The notes beneath the pieces are model-generated. The model was not told the origin of the DNA, did not search any database, and was given only the letters and a program-made list of their open reading frames with translations. DNA of 64,000 bases from the NCBI GenBank assembly GCA_963666055.2, contig CAXWPH010000015.1:1056001-1120000 (forward strand), in the 5' to 3' direction. The position numbers were made by a program, and so were the translations under genes. This DNA is from Acidobacteriota bacterium (GTDB lineage Bacteria; Acidobacteriota; UBA890; WLXD01). Shown here piece by piece: positions 43,199 to 61,436 of the stretch (position 1 is the stretch's first letter; each line of letters starts with the position of its first letter).

Positions 43199-45220
43199 CT
43201 AGCCGCGCAGCAACTCGTCTGTAATGGAGGTTCTTCGCCGGGCGCGGCTTCGAACGACGAGCTGCTCGCGGGCGGCTCGATGCGCCTCGTCGATGGCTGA
43301 GTCGGTGTGGGTGGAGGCAGCGGCATCGGAGTTGGCGATCGAAATCCGACCGAATCGCCGCCTCCCGACGACGCACGGCCGATCGTCGGGGGCGAACAGC
43401 GCCCACTCGATCGGATCGTTCAAGGTGTCGTAGCTATAGGCATAGCCGTGCGGCCAGCGATTCACGGTGATCGCTTCGATGTCCCGGGCTGGGTCGAATC
43501 CCCCACTCTCTAGGGTTCGACTGAGTTGGTCCCGGATGTTGCGCTCGAAGGTCTCGAAGGTGGTGGTCAATAGCTCCTCTCGCCCGATGCGATGCTGCTC
43601 CTTCTTCGGGTGTCCAGGAGCGCAAGGCACCCTGGTCATCTGCAGAATCATCGGGTCGTCAGGCGATGTGGAGGGTTGGTAGTCACCGAACTGCACGGAG
43701 CGGCCGAGGCTGACCCCGCTGTGGTACATCCCCGGAGCAGTCACCCTCGAGATGCCGAGGTTCGTGAAGGCCGTCCACTGACGGATGAGAACCCTGGTGG
43801 AGACCATGGGCATCTTGACGCCATACATGAGCGCCACCTTCTGCTCGTCGGACATCTCGGGGCACAGGTGCGGGATGACGCCGTTGTAGCACGCCATCAC
43901 GCAGTGATCCGCCCGTACCTTCTCGGCCTTGCCGCCGCGCACATAGGTGATCTCGACCCCGCGGGCCGCGTCGGGATCGCCCAGGTGCTGGACAGATATG
44001 ACTGTGCTGTTGAGACGGATCCGGGCATCGGAGCCGGCGCGGTCGATCCGGTCGTACGCCAGGCGCGACATGATCGAGTCCTCCAGCGAGGTGCCCGGAA
44101 GCGCATCGGGAATCATCCCCCGAACCAGCAGCCGGGCCACCGTTGCGTTGCCGTCCGGAAGGTAGATGTTCGGTCCTTTGTTCCACTCGCTCTCGCGACC
44201 GTGTTGTCCGCCCCCGATGTGGCTGAGGGGGCTCACGCGAGGGGAGGGCTCGAGGTTCATTCCCTGGAAGCCGGGATAGCCCTGGGCCCATCCATAGAGC
44301 GCCGGATAGCCGTCGATGCCGACGCAGAAGCTGCCCTTCGGGCGGTCATCGAAGAACGGGATCACATCGGGGTGGACCTTGGCGAGATCGAGGAGGAAGT
44401 CCCGATAACTGATCCGCGCCAGGCGCTCCTTCTTGTCTGCATCCGACAGTCCGGGCATATAGTCCGAGTTTGCGCCGTCATCGTAGAGCCGCGCGATGTC
44501 GCGCCGCGCTTCCGGAGACAGCGGGGTCTGGGCGAGCCAATCGACCCATCCGCTGCTTCCGGATCCCTCTCGCGCTCCTCGTCCCTTAACGAGCCGATCC
44601 TCGCCGCCGAACACCTCTTTGGCGAAGAACGTGGCGCCGCCAAGGCCCAGCGATCCGTAGAACGCCATACCCGCGGCGCTGGTGGCATTCGCACTTTCCA
44701 CGTCGATGCCGATCGCGGCGAGGAGCGTCTTGGAGACGGTGCTGTATTGACCCACGGACTCCAGGTACGACGTGCCGCCGTTGAGCATCAGCGTACGGCC
44801 TCGGTAGGTCATCTCGTTGCGCTTGGCGTGGCCGCCGAAGTCATCGTGGTTGTCGAGCACCAGCACCCGTGCGCCGCGGCCCGCCGAGGTCAGGAAGAAG
44901 TAGGCTGCGGAGAGCCCGCTCAGCCCCCCTCCGACCACCACCATGTCGTAGCTTTCGCCCGTGTCGGCGACATCGGTCCAGGTTTTTCCGTCGCGCAACG
45001 CATGGGCGACCTCGAACGAACCGGGGTGGCTGCCGCGCATTCCAGTCAGGGCCGGTGGGTAGTACTCCTGGGCCCGGGACGGATGGGACGTGCGCTCTCG
45101 CGCCGACAGCCAGCCAGGTGCGATCAGCGACCCCCCGATGGCAACCCCCACACCATTGACGAAGTCGCGTCGGCTGATATCCCGGTGCATCCCGAGATCA
45201 CGATCCGCATTCTTGGACAT
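43199..45220 (-). CDS. SpdH-like FAD oxidoreductase, Tat, paralog C (recent duplicate of A)
   Basis: Near-collinear with 28652-30658, with long identical stretches. Confidence 0.88.
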   Translation of the reverse strand: MSKNADRDLGMHRDISRRDFVNGVGVAIGGSLIAPGWLSARERTSHPSRAQEYYPPALTGMRGSHPGSFEVAHALRDGKTWTDVADTGESYDMVVVGGGLSGLSAAYFFLTSAGRGARVLVLDNHDDFGGHAKRNEMTYRGRTLMLNGGTSYLESVGQYSTVSKTLLAAIGIDVESANATSAAGMAFYGSLGLGGATFFAKEVFGGEDRLVKGRGAREGSGSSGWVDWLAQTPLSPEARRDIARLYDDGANSDYMPGLSDADKKERLARISYRDFLLDLAKVHPDVIPFFDDRPKGSFCVGIDGYPALYGWAQGYPGFQGMNLEPSPRVSPLSHIGGGQHGRESEWNKGPNIYLPDGNATVARLLVRGMIPDALPGTSLEDSIMSRLAYDRIDRAGSDARIRLNSTVISVQHLGDPDAARGVEITYVRGGKAEKVRADHCVMACYNGVIPHLCPEMSDEQKVALMYGVKMPMVSTRVLIRQWTAFTNLGISRVTAPGMYHSGVSLGRSVQFGDYQPSTSPDDPMILQMTRVPCAPGHPKKEQHRIGREELLTTTFETFERNIRDQLSRTLESGGFDPARDIEAITVNRWPHGYAYSYDTLNDPIEWALFAPDDRPCVVGRRRFGRISIANSDAAASTHTDSAIDEAHRAAREQLVVRSRARRRTSITDELLRG

Positions 45221-45537: not shown

Positions 45538-45852
45538 GTGAGCGCTCTGCCACCCGTGACCCATCTGCAGTTCCTGATCCTCGAGTCGCTCGCCGGCAAC
45601 GAGCATGCCGGCCGTGAGGTTCGGTCGACGCTGGCCGACCACGGCGCCAGGCGCACCCTTCCCGCCTTCTACGAGCTCATGGCGCGGCTCGAGAAGGCTG
45701 GCTTGGTGCGTGGTTCGTACTCGCCCAAGACGGTGAATGGCCAAATCGTGCGCGAGCGGCGCTATGCGATAACCGAGGCGGGGCGCGAGGCCCACGCCGC
45801 CACCTGCCGGTTTTACCGCGACAAGCTCGCCATTCGAGCCCAGGAAGCATGA
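45538..45852 (+). CDS. PadR family transcriptional regulator
   Basis: wHTH pattern FYELMARLEKAGLV and RRYAITEAG. ATGA overlap with the ADOP gene. Confidence 0.85.
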   Translation: MSALPPVTHLQFLILESLAGNEHAGREVRSTLADHGARRTLPAFYELMARLEKAGLVRGSYSPKTVNGQIVRERRYAITEAGREAHAATCRFYRDKLAIRAQEA

Positions 45853-48594
45853 CGATGGAGAGTGGCTGGGTTCGACTCCTGCGCCGCGCGCTGCCGCGGC
45901 CGTTGCGCCGATGGCTTTTCGACCCGAGCTTTGCCGAGCTGGTCGAGTTGGCGCACGTCGCCGGCGCTGCCGGGTCGGCGGCCTTGAGCCTGCGGGCGCT
46001 GCGCCTGTGGCTGCAGTGCTGGCTCGTCGGCGCCACCAGCCTGCTGCGGCGCCTCTTCGAGCGGGCTCGTGCCCGGCCGTTCGACTCGCCCCTGACGCTT
46101 CCTTCATCCCCGGATCCGGAGACCTCCATGCAATCGCTGCTCCAGGACCTGCGCTACGCCTTTCGCTCCCTGTGCTCCGTCCCCGGCTTCACCACGGTGG
46201 CGATCCTCACGCTGGCGCTGGGGACCGGGGTCAACACCGCTATCTTCGGCATCGTGGACCTGCTCATGCTGCGCCCGCTGGCGGGCGTCGAGGACGGCCA
46301 CGAGCTGGTCTTCGTGATGGGCTCCCAGAGCGGACATGCCGTTCCTGATGAACCTGTCGTATCCGAATTACGAGGATCTCCGCGACGACCTCGAGGGCTT
46401 CGACGATTTGCTGGCGTACTCCTTGAGGCCCATCAGCCTGACAACGGCCGACGGCCTGGCGGAACGTCTCTACGCCTATACCGTGAGCGCCAACTACTTC
46501 GACGTGCTCGGCGTGCGGATGCGTCACGGCCGCGGCTTCGACGTCGACGAGGGACTGGTCGACACCCCGGCAACCGTCGTGGTGCTCGATCACGGCTACT
46601 GGCAGTCGCGGCTCGGGGGCAGCCCGGACGTGGTGGGCTCGAACGTCGAGATCAACGGCGTGCGGTTCACCGTGGTCGGAGTTGCGCCCGAGGAGTTCCT
46701 CGGGGTGGAGTCGATGCTGGGCCCCCAACTCTACCTGCCGCTGGGGGCGCTGGTGGCGATCGAAGATGACGTGGCCTGGCTGCAGTCGCGACGCGCCGGA
46801 GCCTTCCGGGTGATGGGCCGGCTGGCCGACGACTTCGAACCGGCGCAGGCGGCCGCCAGCGCCGCGGCCGCCTGGGAGCGATTACGCCAGGCTCACCCGG
46901 AGGACAACGGCGAGCGAGGGGTGGTGGTGCTTCCCGAGCGGGCTGGGCGCCCGGATCCTTCCGCCGCCGGCCAGTTCGCCGGCATCGCCGTGATCTTCCT
47001 GGTGCTGGTGGCTCTGGTGCTGACGATTGCCTGCACCAACGTCGCCAACCTGATGCTCGCTCGTGCCACCGGCCGGGTGCGCGAGATAGCCATTCGCTCG
47101 GCGCTCGGCGCCGGCCGCGCCCGCCTGGTGCGGCAGCTGGCCACCGAAAGCGCGCTGCTGGGCCTCGCCGGCGGGGTGGCCGGGGTAATCATCGCCATCT
47201 GGTCGGCGGCCACCTTGCGGTCGGTGGTTTCCAGCTGGCAGCTCGAGTTGCCCGTGCGTCTGCCACTGCACATCGACCTTCGGGTCATCGCGTTCGGGCT
47301 GGTCATTGCCGTCGGCGCCGGCCTGCTCGCCGGCTTGCTGCCGGCCCTGCGGGCATCGAGCGGAGACCTCGGGCTCGGCCTCAACGAGGGAGCGCGCGGG
47401 GCCTCCGGGGGCCGCCAACGTCAGCGCGCGCGCAGCGTGCTGGTGGTGGCACAGGTGATGGTTTCGGTGGTGCTACTGGTAGCTGCCGGCTTGTTCGTCC
47501 GCAGTTTGCAGAACGCGCGCGGAGCGCAGCTGGGCTTCGAGACCGAGGACCGACTGCTGGTGTCGTTCGACCCATCGGTGGTCGGCGTGGATCCGACCGA
47601 GGGTCAAGAGCTGCACCGCCAGCTGCTGGCGCGCACCCGCGCCCTTCCCGGCGTGATTGCGGCCGGCATCACGAACGCCCCGGTGTTCAGCCCGCGAAGC
47701 TTGATGGCCGAGGTTCTCGACGAGGAGCAGGCAGCGCTGGGTGACGAGCGAGGCACGCTCACGCCCTACTTCAGCGTCTCCGCCGGGTACCTGGAGGCCG
47801 CGGGTACGCGGCTGCTTCGGGGCCGCGACCTACGCGACAGCGATACTCTCGACAGCAGTCGCGTGGCGCTGGTGAACGAGTTCATGGCCGAACAGTTGTG
47901 GCCCGGAGAGGATCCGATCGGCGAGCGCTTCTTCGCTGCCCCGGATGAGGATTGGGAGGTCGTGGGCGTGGTGGAACAGGGCAAGTACACGCTCGTCTGG
48001 GAGGATCCCACGCCCGCCTTCTTCATCCCCGTGGCGCAGGAGTACCCCGACGCCGCTACCCTTGTCGTTCATGTCGCCGGCAACCCGCTCGACCTGGCGG
48101 ATCCGCTCCGTCGGGCGCTGTCGGAGCTGGCGCCCACGGTGCCAGTGTTCGGCGTCATGACGATGGACACTCATCTGCGCGACGGCCGCGCGCTGATGCT
48201 GGTGCGTCTGGCCAGTGGCCTGGTGACGGCGTTTGGGCTCCTCGGCATCGCCCTGGCCACGGTGGGGCTGTATGGCGTGATCGCCTACTCGGTGACCCAG
48301 CGGGTGCGGGAGTTCGGGGTGCGCATTGCGCTCGGTGCAGCGCCCGGGAGCGTGCTGTGGATGGTGCTGCGTCAGGGGTTCGTGCTGGCTGCCATCGGTT
48401 CCGCGCTGGGTGTGCTGCTTTCCATCGCTGCGGGCCGGCTGGTCGCGCCGCTGCTGATCGAGGTAAGCGCCACCGACCCGCGGATCTTCGGCGCCGGGGT
48501 GGCGTTTACGTTGGCGACCGCCGCGGTCGCGAGCTTCGTGCCGGCCTGGCGGGCGACGCGGGTAGACCCGAGCGTGGCGCTCCGCAACGAATAG
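45849..48594 (+). pseudogene. ADOP/MacB-type duplicated ABC permease, frameshifted near 46330
   Basis: One frame has QDLRYAFRSL..PGFT..TLALG.G.NTAIF. Another frame continues SYPNY..NVANL..REIAIR.ALGA..VDP..ALR. Confidence 0.85.
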
Positions 48595-48632: not shown

Positions 48633-51600
48633 CTACTGGCGTCGATCCCAGTAGTCGATCGGGCGGTCGTCGGCACGGAGTGCGTCCTGCTCCATCCACG
48701 GACGGGCACCGTAGGGTCGCTGTTCTGGCCAGACCTCGTCGAGCGTCTCGGCCTCGAACAGGATGCCTCCCTGCATGACGTAGCGGATGTCGGCGGTGTT
48801 GCGGATGTCGTCCAGGGGGTTGGATCTCAGGACGAGCAGATCCGCCAGCTTGCCGACCTCGATCGAGCCGAGATCCTCCTGCACACCGAGAAAGTAGGCA
48901 CCTTGCTGGCTGGCCAGCTTCAACGCGCCGAGTGGCCCCATGGCGGAGGCGGCCATCCACACTTCCCAGTGGGGCGCGATCCCGTGGCCCTGTCCGTGCG
49001 CGCCGATGGCGCCGTGGCCGCCGGCCTCGATGATGTCCGCCACTGCCTGCGCCAGGTACGGAAAGCTGTAGTCGGTGGCGGGACGCAGCGGTCGCCGGCG
49101 GGCGTGCGGCAGGATCGTCCGCCACGGCATCCAGCTCATCAGCTTCTCGTCCTCCCAGACGTTGCTCTCCGCATACCAGTAGTTCTCGTTCCAGGGCGCA
49201 AAGCCGACCCCGAAGGTGACCGAATAGGTGGCCTCGGCTCGCCCGAAGAACGTGGTGACGTCGCTGTACAGGGGCAGGTAGCCGAGCGGGTGCTCCCAGC
49301 CGGTCTGGCCGTCCATGATCATGCCCAGGTTGTAGTTCAGGTCGCCCCCCTCGGAGGTGACCATGAGCCCCACCTTCCGGGCCACGTCCGAGATCCACTG
49401 GCGCTGGTCGCGGCGCGGCTGCATGTACTGCTTCAGCGACACCGCGCCCCACGACTGCAGGCGGCGGATGTTCTGCTCCGCCACCTCGTAGCTGGAGATC
49501 TCGTTCTGCCGAAAGGCATCGCCCCGATACAGCGGCGGGCCGGTGCTGAAGGTGCGGGGCCCCAGGATGGCGCCCGAGCGCACCAGCTCGGCGGTGGTGA
49601 AGATGTTCTGGCTCCACATCGAGTTGTCGAGGTCGGTGGTGACCCCGTAGGCCAGGTAGACGGCAGCCTCGAAGCTCTTCTTGCCGATCACTCCGCGGGT
49701 CTCGCGATGGTGGTGGGCGTGCATGTCGATGAAGCCGGGGATGATCGTCGTTCCCGTCACGTCCACTACCCGGTCGACGTCGAGCACGCACTCTCCGACG
49801 CACACGATGCGGCTCCCGCGCACCACGACCGTGCCGCTGTCGATCACCACATCCCCGTCGAGCGTGACGATCCGCGCCCCGGTGAGCGCGATCGCGATCG
49901 CCTCGTCGGGGATTCGCCGCGACAACTTCAGCCGTGCCTCGGTGCTCTGCACTTCTCGCGTGTCCACCCGATAGAGGTGGTGCCGGTTGCCGCTGCCGAA
50001 CTCGAGCTCGTTGGCGCTGCGCCAGCGCAGGAACATGCCGCCTTCGAAGCTCACCTGACGCACTGGGAGGTTGCCGTGGCGCTTCTCAATCTGTGGCGGC
50101 TTACCGCCGGTGCCGAAGGCGGGGAACGCCGTGATGTAGGCGTTGTCGCCCTCCTGAAAGGCGACCCAGCGGCCGTCGGGCGACGGGGCGATCTCGTCGG
50201 CGTAGGGGAAGGTCATGTGCACCCGTTCGTCGCCGCCGTCGCGCCGCACGGAAACGAGCGCGACAACCGCGTCGCCGTCGGCGTTCTCCTGGTCCTCGGC
50301 AAAGTAGACTCGCCCCGCGGGACCGAAGGAGGGCTGCGTGATCGAGCGCCGCGAGACCCCGTAGACACCCACCTCGGAGGGCGGGTTGATCATCGTGATC
50401 ACCTCGCTGGGAGCGGACCCTCCCGAGGCGCTGACGTTCACGAGCTGGTAATACGGGTTGAACATCCAGCCGCGACCGTGGCTGGTGACGCCCGATCCCT
50501 GCACCGCGACGATGTCGCGCCCGCTCGGACTCCAGACCGGATTCAGATACTCCCCCTCGGTCTCGGTGAGCTGCTCGGGGGCGCCGCCCTCGACCGACGC
50601 CTTCCAGACGTGGCCGCGCGCCGCCTCGTCGGCGCTGGTGAAGGCGATGAACCGACCATCGGGTGACCAGGCCGGGGAGAGCTCGAAGGGCTCGAACGAC
50701 TCGGGGGTCAGGCGTCGTGGCTCGCCGCGCTGAAGGCTACTCTCGGGATCTCGATCCATCACCCAGATGCGGCCGGCGGCCTCGAACGCCAGCCGGCTGC
50801 CGTCCGGAGATAGCGTGTGCCAGCGCAAGAACTTGGCGTCGAAGGGCTCGTCGTCGATGCGGAACGGCGCGTAGGCGCGCTCGGATATGACGCGATGCAC
50901 GCTGGCGGTGAAGGGAACCGTGCTCACCTCGCCGCTGGCGACGTCGACGCGACGGATCTTGCCGCCCTGCGAGATGACGATCGATCGGCCCTCGAGGTCC
51001 CAGCTGTAGCCCGGTAGAACGTCCCAGCCCCGCGACTCGACCCGATCGTTTTCGATCGGGTCCATGAGCAGACGCTCGACCCCGCTCTGCAGATCCCGCA
51101 ACCAGAGAGCGGTGCGCGGCCCATAGCGGTGCCCTTTGAAGCTCACGGTGCCGTTCGGAATGCGCCGGGCAAACGCCAGCCAGCGACCGTTGGGCGAGAT
51201 CTCCGCCGCGTAGCCGCCACCGCTGGAGAGGCGGATCTGGGTGTTGGGGATCCCCGCGGTGATCTTGATTACTTCGCCGCTGGAGAGCTCCGCACGCCGG
51301 ATCTGCCGGGCGCCCCCCACCGCTCCGACGAGGCCGACGTCCTTGGCGAGATCGAAGTACAGGTACCTGGAGTCCAAGGAGACCGACGGCCAGCCGGCCG
51401 AGTCGAACTCGTCGCCCAATATCGAGATCCCGTCGCCGCCCTCTCGGTGGTACATCCAGATCCCGCCGGGCCGCCGCTGCACCAGGATGTACTGGCCGTC
51501 CGGTGTCCAGGCGGGCTTCGCCACGCGCACAGCGTCGTCGCGGAATACCGCTCGCGGGTTCGAGCCGTCGCTGTCCATCAGCCAGAGGTTGGGCTGGTTG

Positions 51601-52028
51601 GTGCGGTCCGAGACGAAGGCGATCGTCGTCCCGTCGGGCGAGTAGCTGGGCTGGTAGTTGACCGCGACGCCGCTGTTCTGAGTCAGGCACTCGGCAGCGC
51701 CGCCGTCGGCGGAGACTCGGTAGATGTGTCCGAGCAGGTCGAAGACGATCCAGCGGCCGTCGGGCGAGATGTCGACGGACATCCAGGTGCCCTCGCGGGT
51801 CTCGAAGTCGATGGTTCGGGTTCGTCCGCGCGCCGCGGTGACGTCCCACGCCGGGGCATCCTGGCCCGCCGCCTCCTGGCCGGAGCCCTGGACGAGCTCG
51901 TCCACCGACTGCGGTCGATGATCGCGGGCAAAGCCCACTGGCGCCACGCCGACCGCGGTTGCCAGCAACGCCACCGCCGCGAGGGTCGGGGCGAGTCCGA
52001 GCCGTCTCTGGGATCCGTCGTTCTTCAT
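48633..52028 (-). CDS. Secreted amidohydrolase with N-terminal TolB/PD40 propellers
   Basis: EGTWMSVDISPDG, PD40 repeats, PGFIDMHAH and GSIEVGKLADL motifs. Confidence 0.9.
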   Translation of the reverse strand: MKNDGSQRRLGLAPTLAAVALLATAVGVAPVGFARDHRPQSVDELVQGSGQEAAGQDAPAWDVTAARGRTRTIDFETREGTWMSVDISPDGRWIVFDLLGHIYRVSADGGAAECLTQNSGVAVNYQPSYSPDGTTIAFVSDRTNQPNLWLMDSDGSNPRAVFRDDAVRVAKPAWTPDGQYILVQRRPGGIWMYHREGGDGISILGDEFDSAGWPSVSLDSRYLYFDLAKDVGLVGAVGGARQIRRAELSSGEVIKITAGIPNTQIRLSSGGGYAAEISPNGRWLAFARRIPNGTVSFKGHRYGPRTALWLRDLQSGVERLLMDPIENDRVESRGWDVLPGYSWDLEGRSIVISQGGKIRRVDVASGEVSTVPFTASVHRVISERAYAPFRIDDEPFDAKFLRWHTLSPDGSRLAFEAAGRIWVMDRDPESSLQRGEPRRLTPESFEPFELSPAWSPDGRFIAFTSADEAARGHVWKASVEGGAPEQLTETEGEYLNPVWSPSGRDIVAVQGSGVTSHGRGWMFNPYYQLVNVSASGGSAPSEVITMINPPSEVGVYGVSRRSITQPSFGPAGRVYFAEDQENADGDAVVALVSVRRDGGDERVHMTFPYADEIAPSPDGRWVAFQEGDNAYITAFPAFGTGGKPPQIEKRHGNLPVRQVSFEGGMFLRWRSANELEFGSGNRHHLYRVDTREVQSTEARLKLSRRIPDEAIAIALTGARIVTLDGDVVIDSGTVVVRGSRIVCVGECVLDVDRVVDVTGTTIIPGFIDMHAHHHRETRGVIGKKSFEAAVYLAYGVTTDLDNSMWSQNIFTTAELVRSGAILGPRTFSTGPPLYRGDAFRQNEISSYEVAEQNIRRLQSWGAVSLKQYMQPRRDQRQWISDVARKVGLMVTSEGGDLNYNLGMIMDGQTGWEHPLGYLPLYSDVTTFFGRAEATYSVTFGVGFAPWNENYWYAESNVWEDEKLMSWMPWRTILPHARRRPLRPATDYSFPYLAQAVADIIEAGGHGAIGAHGQGHGIAPHWEVWMAASAMGPLGALKLASQQGAYFLGVQEDLGSIEVGKLADLLVLRSNPLDDIRNTADIRYVMQGGILFEAETLDEVWPEQRPYGARPWMEQDALRADDRPIDYWDRRQ

Positions 52029-52169
52029 CCAAGATCTCCTGTGTACGCGTCGAGCTTTGCCGGCCGTGCGTTCCGTTGATGGGGTATCGGTTTCTACTGG
52101 TACGTGAGTAGTAGGAACCTGATATCCCAACGGCCGAGCCTAGCCATGGACCAATGCAGAAGCAACGAG

Positions 52170-54978: not shown

Positions 54979-55252
54979 CAGGGTGCTGAAGAACTCTGGT
55001 GGGTCTGGTTACGGCGTCGTGGGGCCAGATGCAAGCCGGCGCGACGCAGGCGATGCTTGTCGTATCGTCCAGGAGGGCCAACGCTGCAGATGGCTCCACG
55101 ACGCCGTAACCCGATGGGCACGTGGGGGTTGCTGGCGATCTCAGCGTCAGAGCTCCTCGACGATGACCCTGGCATCGCCCTCGTCGCTCTTCCTTGATCT
55201 CGCCAGCAAGACCCACCTGCCAGACTCATCAGAGTTTTTCAGCACCCTGCTA
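54976..55252. mobile_element. 277-bp TIR element, copy 2
   Basis: 33-bp TIR (30/33) TAGCAGGGTGCTGAA(G/A)AACTCTG.... Starts at the kinase TAG stop. Homologous to 16287-16564. Confidence 0.85.
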
Positions 55253-55418
55253 AGCACCCGCATGGCACCTCCTCGCCGTCACCGGACCAGCAGCGGAGCA
55301 CCTCCCGCTTGAACGTCTCCACATCGACATTCATCGGCAACACGGACCGACAAGGACCCCTGGGCGTTCGGCCGGCACGAGAATATACTCCTACTCCCTC
55401 CTGAGAGGAGTAACAGAG

Positions 55419-56150
55419 GTGGCGAAAACCGAAGAGGAGGCAGTTGGCCGGCGGAAGTTTCTGAAGGGCGCGGCTGCAGCCACCGCTTCGATTGTCGGAC
55501 AAGGACGGGTCGTGGGCGCACAGCAACCCCCTGCAGACGATCATGAGCACCAGACCGTGCCTTCGGATATCGCGCTGCGGGTCAGGGCGCTGGAATCGGT
55601 GCTGGTCGAGAAGGAGATGGTCGACCCCGCGGAGCTCGATGCGCTGATCGATGTCTACGAAAACAAGATCGGTCCCCGCAACGGCGCTCGGGTCGTGGCG
55701 CGTGCCTGGGTCGATCCCGCTTACAAGGCGCGCTTGTTAGCCGACGCCACCGAGGCGATCGCAGAGTTGGGGTATGGCGGTGATGAAGGCGACCACATGG
55801 TGGTGGTCGAGAACGAGCCGAAGGTCCACAACTTGGTGGTGTGCACGCTCTGTTCCTGCTATCCGTGGCCAACGCTTGGCCTCCCACCGGTGTGGTACAA
55901 GTCCGCGGGGTACCGCGCGCAAGCGGTGATCGATCCGCGCGGGGTTCTTCGCGAGTTCGATCTCGAGCTCGCCGCCGACGTCGACGTGCGCGTGTGGGAT
56001 AGCACGGCCGACATTCGCTACCTCGTGTTGCCGGAGCGGCCGGCCGGCACGGCGAACATGACCGAGGAGCAACTCGCTGAGATCGTCACGCGCGACTCGA
56101 TGATCGGCGTCGCAAAGGTCGCGTCGGCGCAAGCGGGAGGCGGCGCGTGA
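55419..56150 (+). CDS. nthA: Cobalt-type nitrile hydratase alpha subunit with Tat-like signal
   Basis: [20 protein letters not shown] and VWDS..RYLVLP.RP motifs. N-terminal [10 protein letters not shown] start after GAGGAG. Confidence 0.95.
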
Positions 56151-56782
56151 ACAGCATCCACGACATGGGTGGGATGGCCGGCATGGGGCCCATCGAGCCG
56201 GAGCCTGACGAGCCCGTGTTTCACCAGGCCTGGGAACGCCGGGTTTTCGCGCTCTCCATGACAATCTCCCTCGGGAGGAGCTTCAGGTTCGAGCTCGAAA
56301 ATATCCCGGCGGCCGACTATTTGCGCATGTCGTATTACGAGCGCTGGTTCACGATACTTGTCAACGGGGTGCTCAGGAACAACCTCGCTACACCCGCCGA
56401 GCTCGAGAGCGGTGAGGCCGACCCGAACCTGCCGCGGCCGGCACCACCGCTGGCGTCGACAGGTGCGTCGCCTGAGTCCGAGCGGCCGGGTGTTCCGGTG
56501 AGCCCGCTGTTCCGTCCGCAGCAGCGCGTGCGCGCCCGCAACATACACGCGCGCGGTCATATACGGCTACCGCGCTACACACGCGGCAAGCGCGGAACCG
56601 TGATCCGGGACCATGGCATCTTCGCCCTGCAGGACACCGCCGAGGATGGACAGAGGCTCGGTGACCGCCCGCAGCACGTGTACACGGTGCAGTTCTCAGC
56701 CCGCGAGCTCTGGGGCGACCGGGGCGTGGCGCGCGACACCGTGTATGTCGACTTGTGGGAGGACTACCTTGAGCCGGCCTGA
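56147..56782 (+). CDS. nthB: Nitrile hydratase beta subunit
   Basis: HDMGGM.GMGP, SYYERW, HIRLPRY.RGK.G and ELWG..D.V.VDLWE.YL motifs. Confidence 0.93.
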
Positions 56783-57149
56783 TCGACTGCTCGACCCCGA
56801 GCGCCTCCAGGCCTTGCCGCCGCTTCCTCGAGACGAGGAAGGACCGGTGTTTGCCGAGCCATGGCAGGCCCAGGCGTTCGCCCTCGCTGTGAAGCTCTCT
56901 GAGCAGGGATATTTCACCTGGAAAGAATGGTCGCAGGCACTCGGCGACGAACTAAGGGCGGCCGCGGCCCGCGGCGAGCCAGACGACGGCTCGCGCTACT
57001 ACCACCACTGGGTGGCCGCCCTCGAGCGGCTTGTCACAGAAAAGGGCTTGACGGATTCACCGACGCTCCTGGAGCGGAAGGAGGCCTGGACTGACGCCTA
57101 CCGCCACACGCCTCACGGAGAGCCGGTGGCGCTCCGTCAGTCGGATTGA
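56769..57149 (+). CDS. Nitrile hydratase accessory (P14K-like) protein
   Basis: PVFAEPWQAQAFAL, F.WKEW, YY.HW..ALE and TPHG.P motifs. TTG start overlaps nthB. Confidence 0.9.
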   Translation: MSRPDRLLDPERLQALPPLPRDEEGPVFAEPWQAQAFALAVKLSEQGYFTWKEWSQALGDELRAAAARGEPDDGSRYYHHWVAALERLVTEKGLTDSPTLLERKEAWTDAYRHTPHGEPVALRQSD

Positions 57150-57245
57150 AGCACCTCATGCGCCTTCCGGCGCGAGGGGACTCGTCTTGTGCGTGAGCGA
57201 TCGGTCCAGCGTCTAGCAGACGAGGTCGAGAGGGGAGGACAAAGC

Positions 57246-57899
57246 ATGGGTTTTCGCCAACGTACTTGGTTTGGGCGAACCGCTGTGGCGCGCAAAGTCT
57301 TCGCCACGCTCACGGTCGTGCTCTTGTGTCACCCACACGAAGCCATGGCGCATCACATGATCGGTGGTGCGGTGCCCCGTAGCGTTCTCGGAGGATTCTT
57401 CTCCGGTCTTGCCCATCCGGTCATCGGCCCTGACCATCTCGCGTTCATCCTCGCGGTCGGGATCATCGCGGCGGCTTTCGCGGAAGGAGGCGTCTTTCCG
57501 GTCGTTTTCTTGAGCACCTCCCTGGCAGGCTGTGTGCTTCGCCTGACGGGAGTCAGCGTCGTGGGCGGCGAGGTCGCGGTCGCAGTTACGGTGGTGGCCG
57601 CAGGCGTGTTCCTGGCCGTGGACAGGAAGATTCGCCGGTCGCGGCTCCTGGTCGGCTTGGCGCTCGCCGGAGCCTTTCATGGCTACGCCTATGGCGAATC
57701 GATGGTGGGAGCGGAGCCTACGCCCATCGTCGGCTATTTGCTCGGACTCGCGGTGATCCAGTATGCCGTGGCGATGGGGGCATTCGCAGTTGCACGGCGA
57801 TTCGACGATCGAGCTTTGGCGGGGCGAGACGTGACGATGCGGGCGGCGGGGATCACGGTAGGAATGATCGGAGTGGTCGCATTCGCCCTGGCTCTCTAG
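57246..57899 (+). CDS. HupE/UreJ family Ni/Co transporter
   Basis: AMAHH, SGLAHPVIGPDHL and FHGYAYG motifs. Multiple TM helices. Confidence 0.9.
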   Translation: MGFRQRTWFGRTAVARKVFATLTVVLLCHPHEAMAHHMIGGAVPRSVLGGFFSGLAHPVIGPDHLAFILAVGIIAAAFAEGGVFPVVFLSTSLAGCVLRLTGVSVVGGEVAVAVTVVAAGVFLAVDRKIRRSRLLVGLALAGAFHGYAYGESMVGAEPTPIVGYLLGLAVIQYAVAMGAFAVARRFDDRALAGRDVTMRAAGITVGMIGVVAFALAL

Positions 57900-60413: not shown

Positions 60414-61436
60414 CTACTCCTCAGCATGCACGATCGTGTCAGGCCGGTACTTCTCCCACGCGAACCAGAGGGAGTAGGTCGAGATTATCGGCTGCAGATG
60501 CGCTCCCTGAAGCGCTCCGGAAACCGCCTCGCCGGTGATCGGATTCCACTTTGAGCCGGTTTGGTGATCCCGAAGCCGATCGTCGGAGTCGAGGCTGAAG
60601 CTCAACTCCTGGTCGTTAAGGGTTCGCAGGTAGATACGCGCCGTAGATAGGTCCGGCGCCAAGTACACGACGATCGGCGCGTTCTCGAAGACGTCCTCGA
60701 GCAAGCGCTTGCTAGCCAGCCGCCGCACCAGATAAGCGCGCGCTTCGACGTGACCCTCGAGGCCGACGATCAGGTCCTCCGAACGGATCGGCCCCGGCGG
60801 TTGGTTGGCGATCTCGTCGAAGGTCTCCCGGGTGAACCGCGCTCGATAAGGGACCGCAGGCTTCACATAGACCGTGGTCTCGGGATGCATCTCCCGCCAT
60901 TGACGCCAGGTCGTCATCATCGACGCACGCTTTTCGAGCGCTGTTCCTTCCAGCTCGCCGCTGACCGCCTTGCCAAACAGCTGGCTCCAGTGTGAGCGGG
61001 TCTGTGCGTCGTACATGATGAGCGTGCCCTCGTCGACGCCGACGACGCCGAATTGCAGCTCCCGGCCATCAAACTCGCGGGCGTACACGACGCCGCTGTG
61101 ATCGATCGGTCACCAGCTCGGCGCGATGAGCTCTCCACCGAGCTCGTCGTTGACGACCTCGTTGTTCGGCCCGTTCATGTAGTTGACTGGGTAGGCGCGT
61201 GCCTGGCCGTTGATCACCACACCCATGACGATGTCGTCGTCACCAATTTCGGCCTCGGACGCGGCGACGATCTCCGGATCGACGTTCAGCGGAAAGCCCT
61301 CCTCGCTGAGCATGGTGAAGTCGGACCGGTCGCGATTCGTCGGGCCGCGGCCCTGGGGCGCCTCGCCAAACGCCTGGAGCGGCAGCAGCGTCGCGCTGAC
61401 AACCACGAGCGCCAGTAACTTACTCAGTCCGTGCAC
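60414..61436 (-). CDS. DUF3179 family (seleno)protein with in-frame UGA at 61110-61112
   Basis: Two same-frame ORFs joined: ARAYP...EVVND.LGG..IAPSW-UGA-PIDHSGVVY...FGVVG..LIMYD.QT.S.W.Q. Hairpin 3' of the UGA. Confidence 0.82.

Follow-up and report, generated by a model that had tools for sequence, protein, structure and literature searches.

A 64,000-nucleotide stretch of an Acidobacteriota genome (contig CAXWPH010000015.1; referred to here as the window, with positions counted from its first nucleotide) carries, at 55419-57899 on its forward strand, four genes that by their profile scores and conserved residues are a cobalt-type nitrile hydratase (NHase) unit, and the alpha subunit of that enzyme begins with a twin-arginine leader. 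We consider it probable, from sequence comparison, that the enzyme undergoes maturation in the cytoplasm and then exits by twin-arginine translocation (Tat), with its beta subunit carried along as a hitch-hiker. The evidence behind that reading consists of: (i) a start codon upstream of the arginine pair at nearly all loci that could be parsed; (ii) purifying selection on the leader; (iii) a positioned A|Q/E cleavage-like site; (iv) partner proteins that lack a leader; and (v) the presence of an outer membrane in the host and of Tat genes in its lineage. The class of enzyme is a known one, and the conserved Tat-type leader on its alpha subunit appears to be the new feature. To our knowledge, the NHases that have been characterised are cytoplasmic. 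The maturation of these enzymes appears to have been studied on the premise that they work in that compartment. Description of an exported NHase was not encountered in the literature searched, from which subscription journals were mostly absent, and Tat-substrate prediction tables in supplements could list one.

The first three of the four genes overlap, and all are found in a host assembly of 5.7 Mb that is 95.7% complete. The alpha gene, nthA (55419-56150, 243 amino acids), is preceded by a ribosome-binding site visible in the sequence (GAGGAG, 55405-55410, 8 nucleotides 5' of its GTG start), and its product matches TIGR01323 at 298 bits (cut-off 249.85) and PF02979 at E 8e-88. The beta gene, nthB (56147-56782, 211 amino acids), has a start that overlaps the alpha stop codon (GTGA), and its product exceeds the TIGR03888 cut-off (181 against 152 bits); the accessory gene (56769-57149, 126 amino acids from an inferred TTG start) encodes a P14K-like activator that exceeds the TIGR03889 cut-off (97 against 46 bits). 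The fourth gene (57246-57899, with an alternative GTG start at 57189) encodes a HupE/UreJ family membrane protein that is likely a cobalt or nickel permease (PF04955, E 3e-31). This gene is found 3' of the accessory gene in six of eight stretches from relatives in the host's class, corresponding to all six that hold a whole leader-bearing operon; in the 38 other leader-bearing loci, none was found beside the operon at E < 1e-6.

The metal site of the alpha subunit reads CTLCSCY at residues 142-148, of which CTLCSC (55842-55859) is present in all 120 of the best homologs, and its threonine and tyrosine are what we take to be the mark of a cobalt-type NHase. In the beta subunit, residues R47, E51, Y63 and R140 are invariant across 31 aligned sequences; R47 and E51 align with R52 and E56 of the Pseudomonas putida enzyme, and R140 is presumably the equivalent of its R157. 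Two alpha positions depart from the usual pattern, with EGD in place of QGE (3 of the 120 best homologs, a further 10 having EGE) and aspartate at the position equivalent to P. putida E168 (14 of 120). Neither the accessory protein nor the beta subunit carries a leader, the latter beginning directly at the conserved MNxIHDMGG motif. The sequence-only reading of this DNA, which had described an operon of a leader-bearing alpha subunit, a beta subunit without a signal, an accessory protein and a HupE/UreJ permease, was in these respects correct. Identification as thiocyanate hydrolase was rejected, as the alpha subunit scores 177.8 bits, far below the TIGR03887 cut-off of 291.45, and the beta subunit is a single 211-residue chain rather than a split one; an NHLP precursor of a ribosomally synthesized and post-translationally modified peptide was likewise ruled out by family profile scores. 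Searches of the window produced no Rfam matches, and a promoter scan found nothing exceeding shuffled sequences.

The predicted Tat signal peptide occupies alpha residues 1-34 (55419-55520), an assignment based on its profile score, structural model, conservation and selection. Its arginine pair (residues 11-12, 55449-55454) lies within GRRKFLK (residues 10-16, 55446-55466), with glycine at the place of serine or threonine, and is followed by 13 uncharged, alanine-rich residues (55467-55505), a basic R30, and a cleavage-like site, VGA|QQ (residues 32-34, 55512-55520). A histidine-rich stretch follows directly, and the enzyme core begins at about residue 50. The leader matches the TIGR01409 Tat-signal profile at 19.4 bits over residues 11-27 (cut-off 16.7), ranking seventh among 84 six-frame matches of the genome, 50 of which exceed the cut-off (150 of 191 candidates having been scored); it scores 17.9 bits against Pfam TAT_signal, under the cut-off of 22.7. 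Among aligned homologs, 50 of 53 match TIGR01409 at E <= 0.05. For residues 1-45, which include a helix at 14-23, an AlphaFold model of the alpha subunit gives a predicted local distance difference test value below 50, and thus places the leader outside the enzyme fold. As a family, these leaders follow the charge and hydropathy profiles of the genome's other Tat-like leaders, while being shorter by about two residues. A big share of those other leaders belongs to FAD/NAD-binding oxidoreductase paralogs, one of which is encoded in the window (43199-45220, reverse strand) and which recur at about 20 places in the genome with a shared long amino-terminal region, DRxLGMxRxIxRRDF.

Analyses of related sequences indicated that this leader is translated and maintained. 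The arginine pair is kept as RRx[FL] in 116 of the 120 nearest alpha homologs, the pattern RRx[FLIVM][LIVMF] falling within their first 60 residues; of the four remaining sequences, two were called without a leader (P0006 and P0117) and the others read RREFP or HREFL. Because the ranking of this set reflects similarity to the full-length query, it favors leader-bearing proteins; sets of loci from GTDB genomes and from metagenomes, found by core patterns and each comprising the nearest 80, are less biased. A leader was present in 11 of 79 GTDB loci (a twelfth regular-expression hit being false, and two loci being cut off), from Acidobacteriota, Steroidobacteraceae, another gammaproteobacterium, an alphaproteobacterium and two bins labelled Chloroflexota, and, among 79 parsed loci from metagenomes, in 27 (29 hits, less three that were false, plus one reading RRGIL). 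An alpha gene is present in 11 of 26 genomes of the host's own class, and of 14 parsed loci there, 8 carry the leader.

At 46 of 47 parsed loci an in-frame start codon lies 2-10 codons 5' of the arginine pair, the exception being a false pattern hit, and at 39 of the 47 a motif resembling a ribosome-binding site precedes that start; in all eight leader-bearing loci of the host's class the start lies 10 codons before the pair. All six arginine codons are used for the first arginine across the loci, and differences within the leader show the third-position bias of coding sequence (125, 82 and 263 at codon positions one, two and three). The ratio of nonsynonymous to synonymous change (pN/pS), from nine related loci whose pairs are non-independent, is 0.33 over the arginine pair and the next 14 codons, compared with 0.24 in the core, 0.64 in the amino-terminal region (n-region) and 1.13 and 1.56 in the other frames. 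From the upstream start, the codon use and these ratios, the comparison leads to the conclusion that the leader is protein-coding sequence maintained by purifying selection. The arginine pair and the phenylalanine are invariant in 46 of 46 dereplicated leaders, and their flanks vary; those same residues are bound by TatC in a 2026 structure of TatBC with a signal peptide (PMC13323110).

These observations bear directly upon the simplest alternative, in which translation starts downstream at a GTG codon (Val32), the arginine stretch is untranslated, and the product is an ordinary cytoplasmic NHase. In the host genome such a codon does lie in frame, 21 codons past the arginine pair and behind a ribosome-site-like AAGGA, and the database calls of P0006 and P0117 begin without a leader. 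That codon is missing from three same-genus loci (L102, L104 and L106), and an untranslated stretch would not be expected to display the codon-position pattern and pN/pS given above; the downstream start was rejected on these grounds, is in our estimation scarcely credible, and with it falls most of a doubt that the sequence-only reading had itself raised. Among sequencing runs, two DNA runs, which may be from the source sample, match the leader without differences.

In a quick core tree of 126 rows leader presence is clustered, requiring 8 changes compared with 37.8 when shuffled, and in a second quick tree of 112 rows, which omits the frameshifted locus L107, 12 changes compared with 31. Rows without a leader are nested among leader-bearing ones (L070, L198, L200, L029, L048 and L143), as are eroded forms (L115 and L147), a pattern that fits a single gain followed by repeated loss, with low backbone support. 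A profile search of 50% representatives further identified a distant alpha protein, P0182, that is 47% identical to the query, and among the 120 best homologs of that protein 119 have a twin-arginine leader whose uncharged stretch is long (median 24 residues) and 110 have an AxA[QE] site. Two members of this family (P0182 and P0298-P0416 taken together) are named as proteins of Rhizobiales or Alphaproteobacteria metagenome-assembled genomes, and members on plasmids of cultured Rhizobium leguminosarum, 81% identical in the core, lack the leader. The tree sets P0182 apart, and an approximately unbiased test, on a tree from which seven long or frameshifted rows were removed, does not reject a single origin (p = 0.26). 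Whether there were one or two origins, a second alpha family carries a textbook Tat signal on the same fold. As a separate observation, the R. leguminosarum members are accompanied by a distinct beta subunit that starts MKLQHYLGG.

Leader-bearing and leader-less enzymes can also occur together, as in the same-genus genome G019, which has one of each. In the host genome, outside the window, a decayed second NHase in beta-alpha order (G000:C15:1139678-1140374) retains a frameshifted beta gene and only the histidine-rich, leader-less start of an alpha gene that is whole in G019. No cultured bacterium was found to host a leader-bearing NHase: the leader is absent from the closest match on a plasmid (Paraburkholderia caledonica), from R. 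leguminosarum and, judged by the range of their matches, from five further genomes. Irregular gene structures were observed at several leader-bearing loci: in L194 the alpha gene lies in two parts about 8 kb apart (G018:C28:5796 and 14380), and in two acidobacterial operons extra coding sequence follows, or is fused to, the accessory gene (L028:7706-8143 and L025:7258-8097), the extra reading frame of L028 containing a cysteine-rich CQGCCCG stretch.

Several properties of the leader and of its host are those expected of a functional export signal. A small-x-A|[QE] site lies 16-22 residues from the arginine pair in 27 of 54 dereplicated leaders, compared with 8.9 (maximum 19) in 2000 shuffles, a window that was picked after inspection of the data, for sequences that are related to one another, and which is therefore to be counted among the objections assembled below; in an earlier set, a cleavage-like site was found in 25 of 46 dereplicated leaders compared with 11 when shuffled. 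At leader-bearing loci, no RRxF leader was found on 48 beta subunits or upstream of 38 accessory genes. The host is diderm, with a BamA match of 442 bits, and its genome contains four tatA/B matches. Intact copies of the canonical tatC are present in four same-genus genomes, and all five relatives that carry the leader-bearing operon encode an intact product.

Against export must be set a number of observations that weigh in the other direction. The position-free AxA test, on a more diverse set, was not significant (24 of 41 DNA-derived leaders, compared with 19.9 when shuffled), and the strict AxA pattern in those 41 leaders (12, compared with 5.7) lies within the shuffled maximum of 13. The hydrophobic region (h-region) is short and weak: the best 12-residue hydropathy of the leader is 1.31, the sixth lowest of 46 Tat-like leaders in the genome, and its uncharged run is the seventh shortest of those 46, while the leader family as a whole has a median hydropathy of 1.45, compared with 1.63 (p = 0.003) for 34 further leaders from this genome, a comparison set rich in paralogs. 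The n-region (KTEEE) is acidic, residues 1-10 being net acidic and the net charge reaching +2 only when RRKF is counted; a net charge of zero or below is found in 6 of 41 homolog leaders. Several close relatives (L070, L198, L029, L048, L115 and L147) have an eroded leader or none, and no conserved neighbor indicates a substrate: homologs of the window's sulfatase, metallo-hydrolase, kinase and amidohydrolase are missing from 38 leader-bearing loci. In the host assembly the canonical tatC is frameshifted (G000:C14:129035-129665), with one base more than four same-genus genomes in a homopolymer run; rpoB, rpoC and secA are intact, and single-base gaps relative to G019 are frequent, so that either an assembly error or a real lesion may be involved. 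A second TatC, without the HLxEL motif, is intact and is shared across the genus; with two truncated tatA-tatC copies it accounts for three further tatC loci (C11:214750, C2:401703 and C15:1363387). Two RNA runs yielded one contig of 232 bases over the alpha-beta junction and none on the leader, which is listed here while being evidence in neither direction. Finally, by way of a base rate, of 44 Tat signals predicted in Pseudomonas aeruginosa, 33 were validated (PMC6085387).

Many of these same observations would be accommodated if the leader were a Tat-type peptide that is weak or a remnant, with the enzyme remaining mostly cytoplasmic or being split between compartments, and the peptide aiding maturation, as for NarG and NarJ, or tethering the enzyme to the membrane. 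The short, weak h-region, which in many homologs is interrupted by acidic residues, the existence of very short versions of the leader (L015 and L128), the repeated loss of the leader while the operon persists, and the broken canonical tatC of the host assembly all agree with such a reading, and remnant Tat peptides are known (PMC10609526). [quoted passage not shown] A remnant peptide would not be expected, however, to hold invariant precisely those residues that TatC reads (PMC13323110) and to keep a cleavage-like site in position; moreover, no leader-binding chaperone accompanies the operons, the same accessory protein being present in 90 of 113 leader-less loci, and the second alpha family carries a strong signal. 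We therefore regard a remnant peptide as unlikely. A further alternative, that Tat reads the leader with another outcome, leaving either an uncut anchor on the membrane's periplasmic side or an alpha subunit that exits without beta, is favored by the limited share of leaders (half of the 54) with a clear cleavage site and by at least one report of an alpha subunit active by itself (PMC11672702), and appears very improbable. Export of a folded alpha-beta complex after cytoplasmic maturation, as the sequence-only reading had proposed, is thus left as the preferred explanation, in agreement with all of the sequence tests run and qualified by the weakness of the h-region.

If export does occur, it can be envisioned as a series of four steps. 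The HupE/UreJ protein, judging from its family and conserved position, would supply cobalt; the leader-less accessory protein would then insert that metal into alpha by self-subunit swapping, by homology with P. putida, for which P14K-mediated insertion of this kind has been described (PMC3680314; PMC11672702). TatC would next read RRKFLK, and a folded alpha-beta complex would cross the inner membrane, as is established for signal-less subunits of HybOC and PaoABC that are exported as hitch-hikers (PMC4273604); cleavage is predicted after Ala34 and would leave chains of 22.7 and 23.9 kDa (alpha and beta), or about 47 kDa per pair. In the last step, which is the weakest of the four and which we hold to be conceivable and somewhat doubtful, nitriles would be converted to amides in the periplasm, and leader-bearing amidase-signature enzymes would carry these to acid and ammonia.

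With respect to that last step, the genome contains 14 amidase-signature matches, none of them in or near the window, which accords with the earlier statement that no amidase is adjacent to the operon. By eye, two of 12 long amidase-signature proteins have leaders of the twin-arginine type and about five have leaders of the Sec type, and on that basis a periplasmic route from nitrile through amide to ammonia is possible. The sequence-only reading had suggested that exported amidohydrolases nearby possibly take up the amide product, a suggestion that found no support, as the amidohydrolase of the window (48633-52130) has no homolog in the 38 leader-bearing loci; the leader-bearing amidase-signature enzymes encoded elsewhere would be better partners. 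Amidase-signature genes were found in none of 38 leader-bearing loci and in 5 of 113 leader-less loci, numbers too small to be meaningful.

The beta subunit displays differences of its own. Between about residues 89 and 120 it contains a proline-rich linker without a predicted helix, where other beta subunits have an amphipathic segment, and in a model of beta folded alone (predicted template modelling score 0.57) no helix is present over residues 89-126. Beta subunits with such a linker, rich in proline, glutamate and glycine, were found in the host's class, in L070 and in P0133 and P0134, and they also display changes just ahead of the catalytic arginine and a longer loop near residue 165; the substrate entrance may be altered. 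The notion that the leader substitutes for the missing helix was discarded, because most leader-bearing operons of other lineages keep a helix-type beta subunit and L070 has the linker type yet no leader.

Additional features of the window were noted in passing. In the gap that separates the kinase gene from the NHase operon lies a non-coding element of 271 bases (54979-55249), whose ends are inverted repeats of 20 bases that match at 19 of the 20 positions. It produced 158 blastn hit lines against the genome, several of which are close to full length and 72-97% identical, and it resembles a miniature inverted-repeat transposable element. At 45538-48594 a PadR-like gene precedes an ADOP permease gene that a frame change near 46340 divides, and whose product scores above the TIGR03434 cut-off, with a match beginning at profile position 72; this permease and the named relatives of the operon point to Acidobacteriota or a similar phylum as the host lineage. 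A DUF3179 gene on the reverse strand (60414-61436) is broken into two parts, which cover profile positions 2-61 and 74-292.

NHase is an industrial enzyme, and its maturation has been studied with regard to cobalt insertion, cysteine oxidation and subunit swapping. A natural Tat-exported NHase, if confirmed, would represent a new kind of Tat cargo; because Tat passes only folded complexes, it would also provide a simple in vivo readout of correct maturation, and it would permit whole-cell catalysts whose substrate need not pass the inner membrane, as well as a different reading of NHase genes from uncultured soil and aquatic bacteria. A far broader proposal, which we offer tentatively and consider doubtful as a whole, is that Tat-exported NHases with non-corrin cobalt are routine in a large uncultured part of the bacteria, that alpha subunits acquired the signal on at least two occasions (in the present family, of the Acidobacteriota/Gemmatimonadota/Steroidobacteraceae type, and in a separate alphaproteobacterial one), that some genomes maintain a cytoplasmic and a periplasmic NHase, and that in the present case a beta entrance opened for bulky or membrane-impermeant nitriles is paired with exported amidases in an unrecognised periplasmic pathway from nitrile to ammonia.

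Among known systems, the sponge aeroplysinin-1 hydratase was considered as a counterpart and set aside, being manganese-dependent, with peptides unlike those of NHases (PMC3766881). The closest solved relative is the cobalt-type NHase of P. putida with its P14K activator (PDB 3QXE/3QZ5), which provides the best structural match for alpha (3QXE_A, E 8e-90) and for beta (3QXE_B, E 1e-46, ranking first by sequence and near the top by fold), and which shares the alpha-beta-P14K gene order (PMC3680314), the CTLCSCY site, a histidine-rich amino-terminal stretch on alpha and equivalents of beta R52, E56 and Y215. The present enzyme differs from it in the 34-residue twin-arginine leader, in a beta subunit that is five residues shorter before the catalytic arginine and contains the proline-rich linker, in the alpha substitutions at the E168-equivalent and QGE positions, in the HupE/UreJ gene that follows, and in the lack of an adjacent amidase. 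Thiocyanate hydrolase gamma (TIGR03887; PDB 2DD4) has the same fold and cobalt site, and is separated from the alpha subunit by profile score (178 bits against a cut-off of 291) and from the beta subunit by the division of its own counterpart into two chains. The remnant Tat peptide of NarG is not known to carry an arginine pair. That peptide, which is bound by NarJ (PMC10609526), is similar in being a Tat-like amino terminus on the catalytic subunit of a metalloenzyme that needs a maturation protein, and differs in that the arginine pair, phenylalanine and cleavage-like site are conserved here. In the accessible text of a 2026 review of Tat transport (PMC13673990), cobalt is named only as a corrinoid cofactor and the word 'nitrile' has no occurrences. 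The nearest functional precedents are HybOC and PaoABC of Escherichia coli (PMC4273604), which likewise have a twin-arginine signal on one subunit, none on its partners, and cofactor loading in the cytoplasm; those are redox enzymes whose export has been shown, whereas in the system described here export is predicted, and the cargo would be a hydro-lyase containing non-corrin cobalt together with oxidised cysteines.

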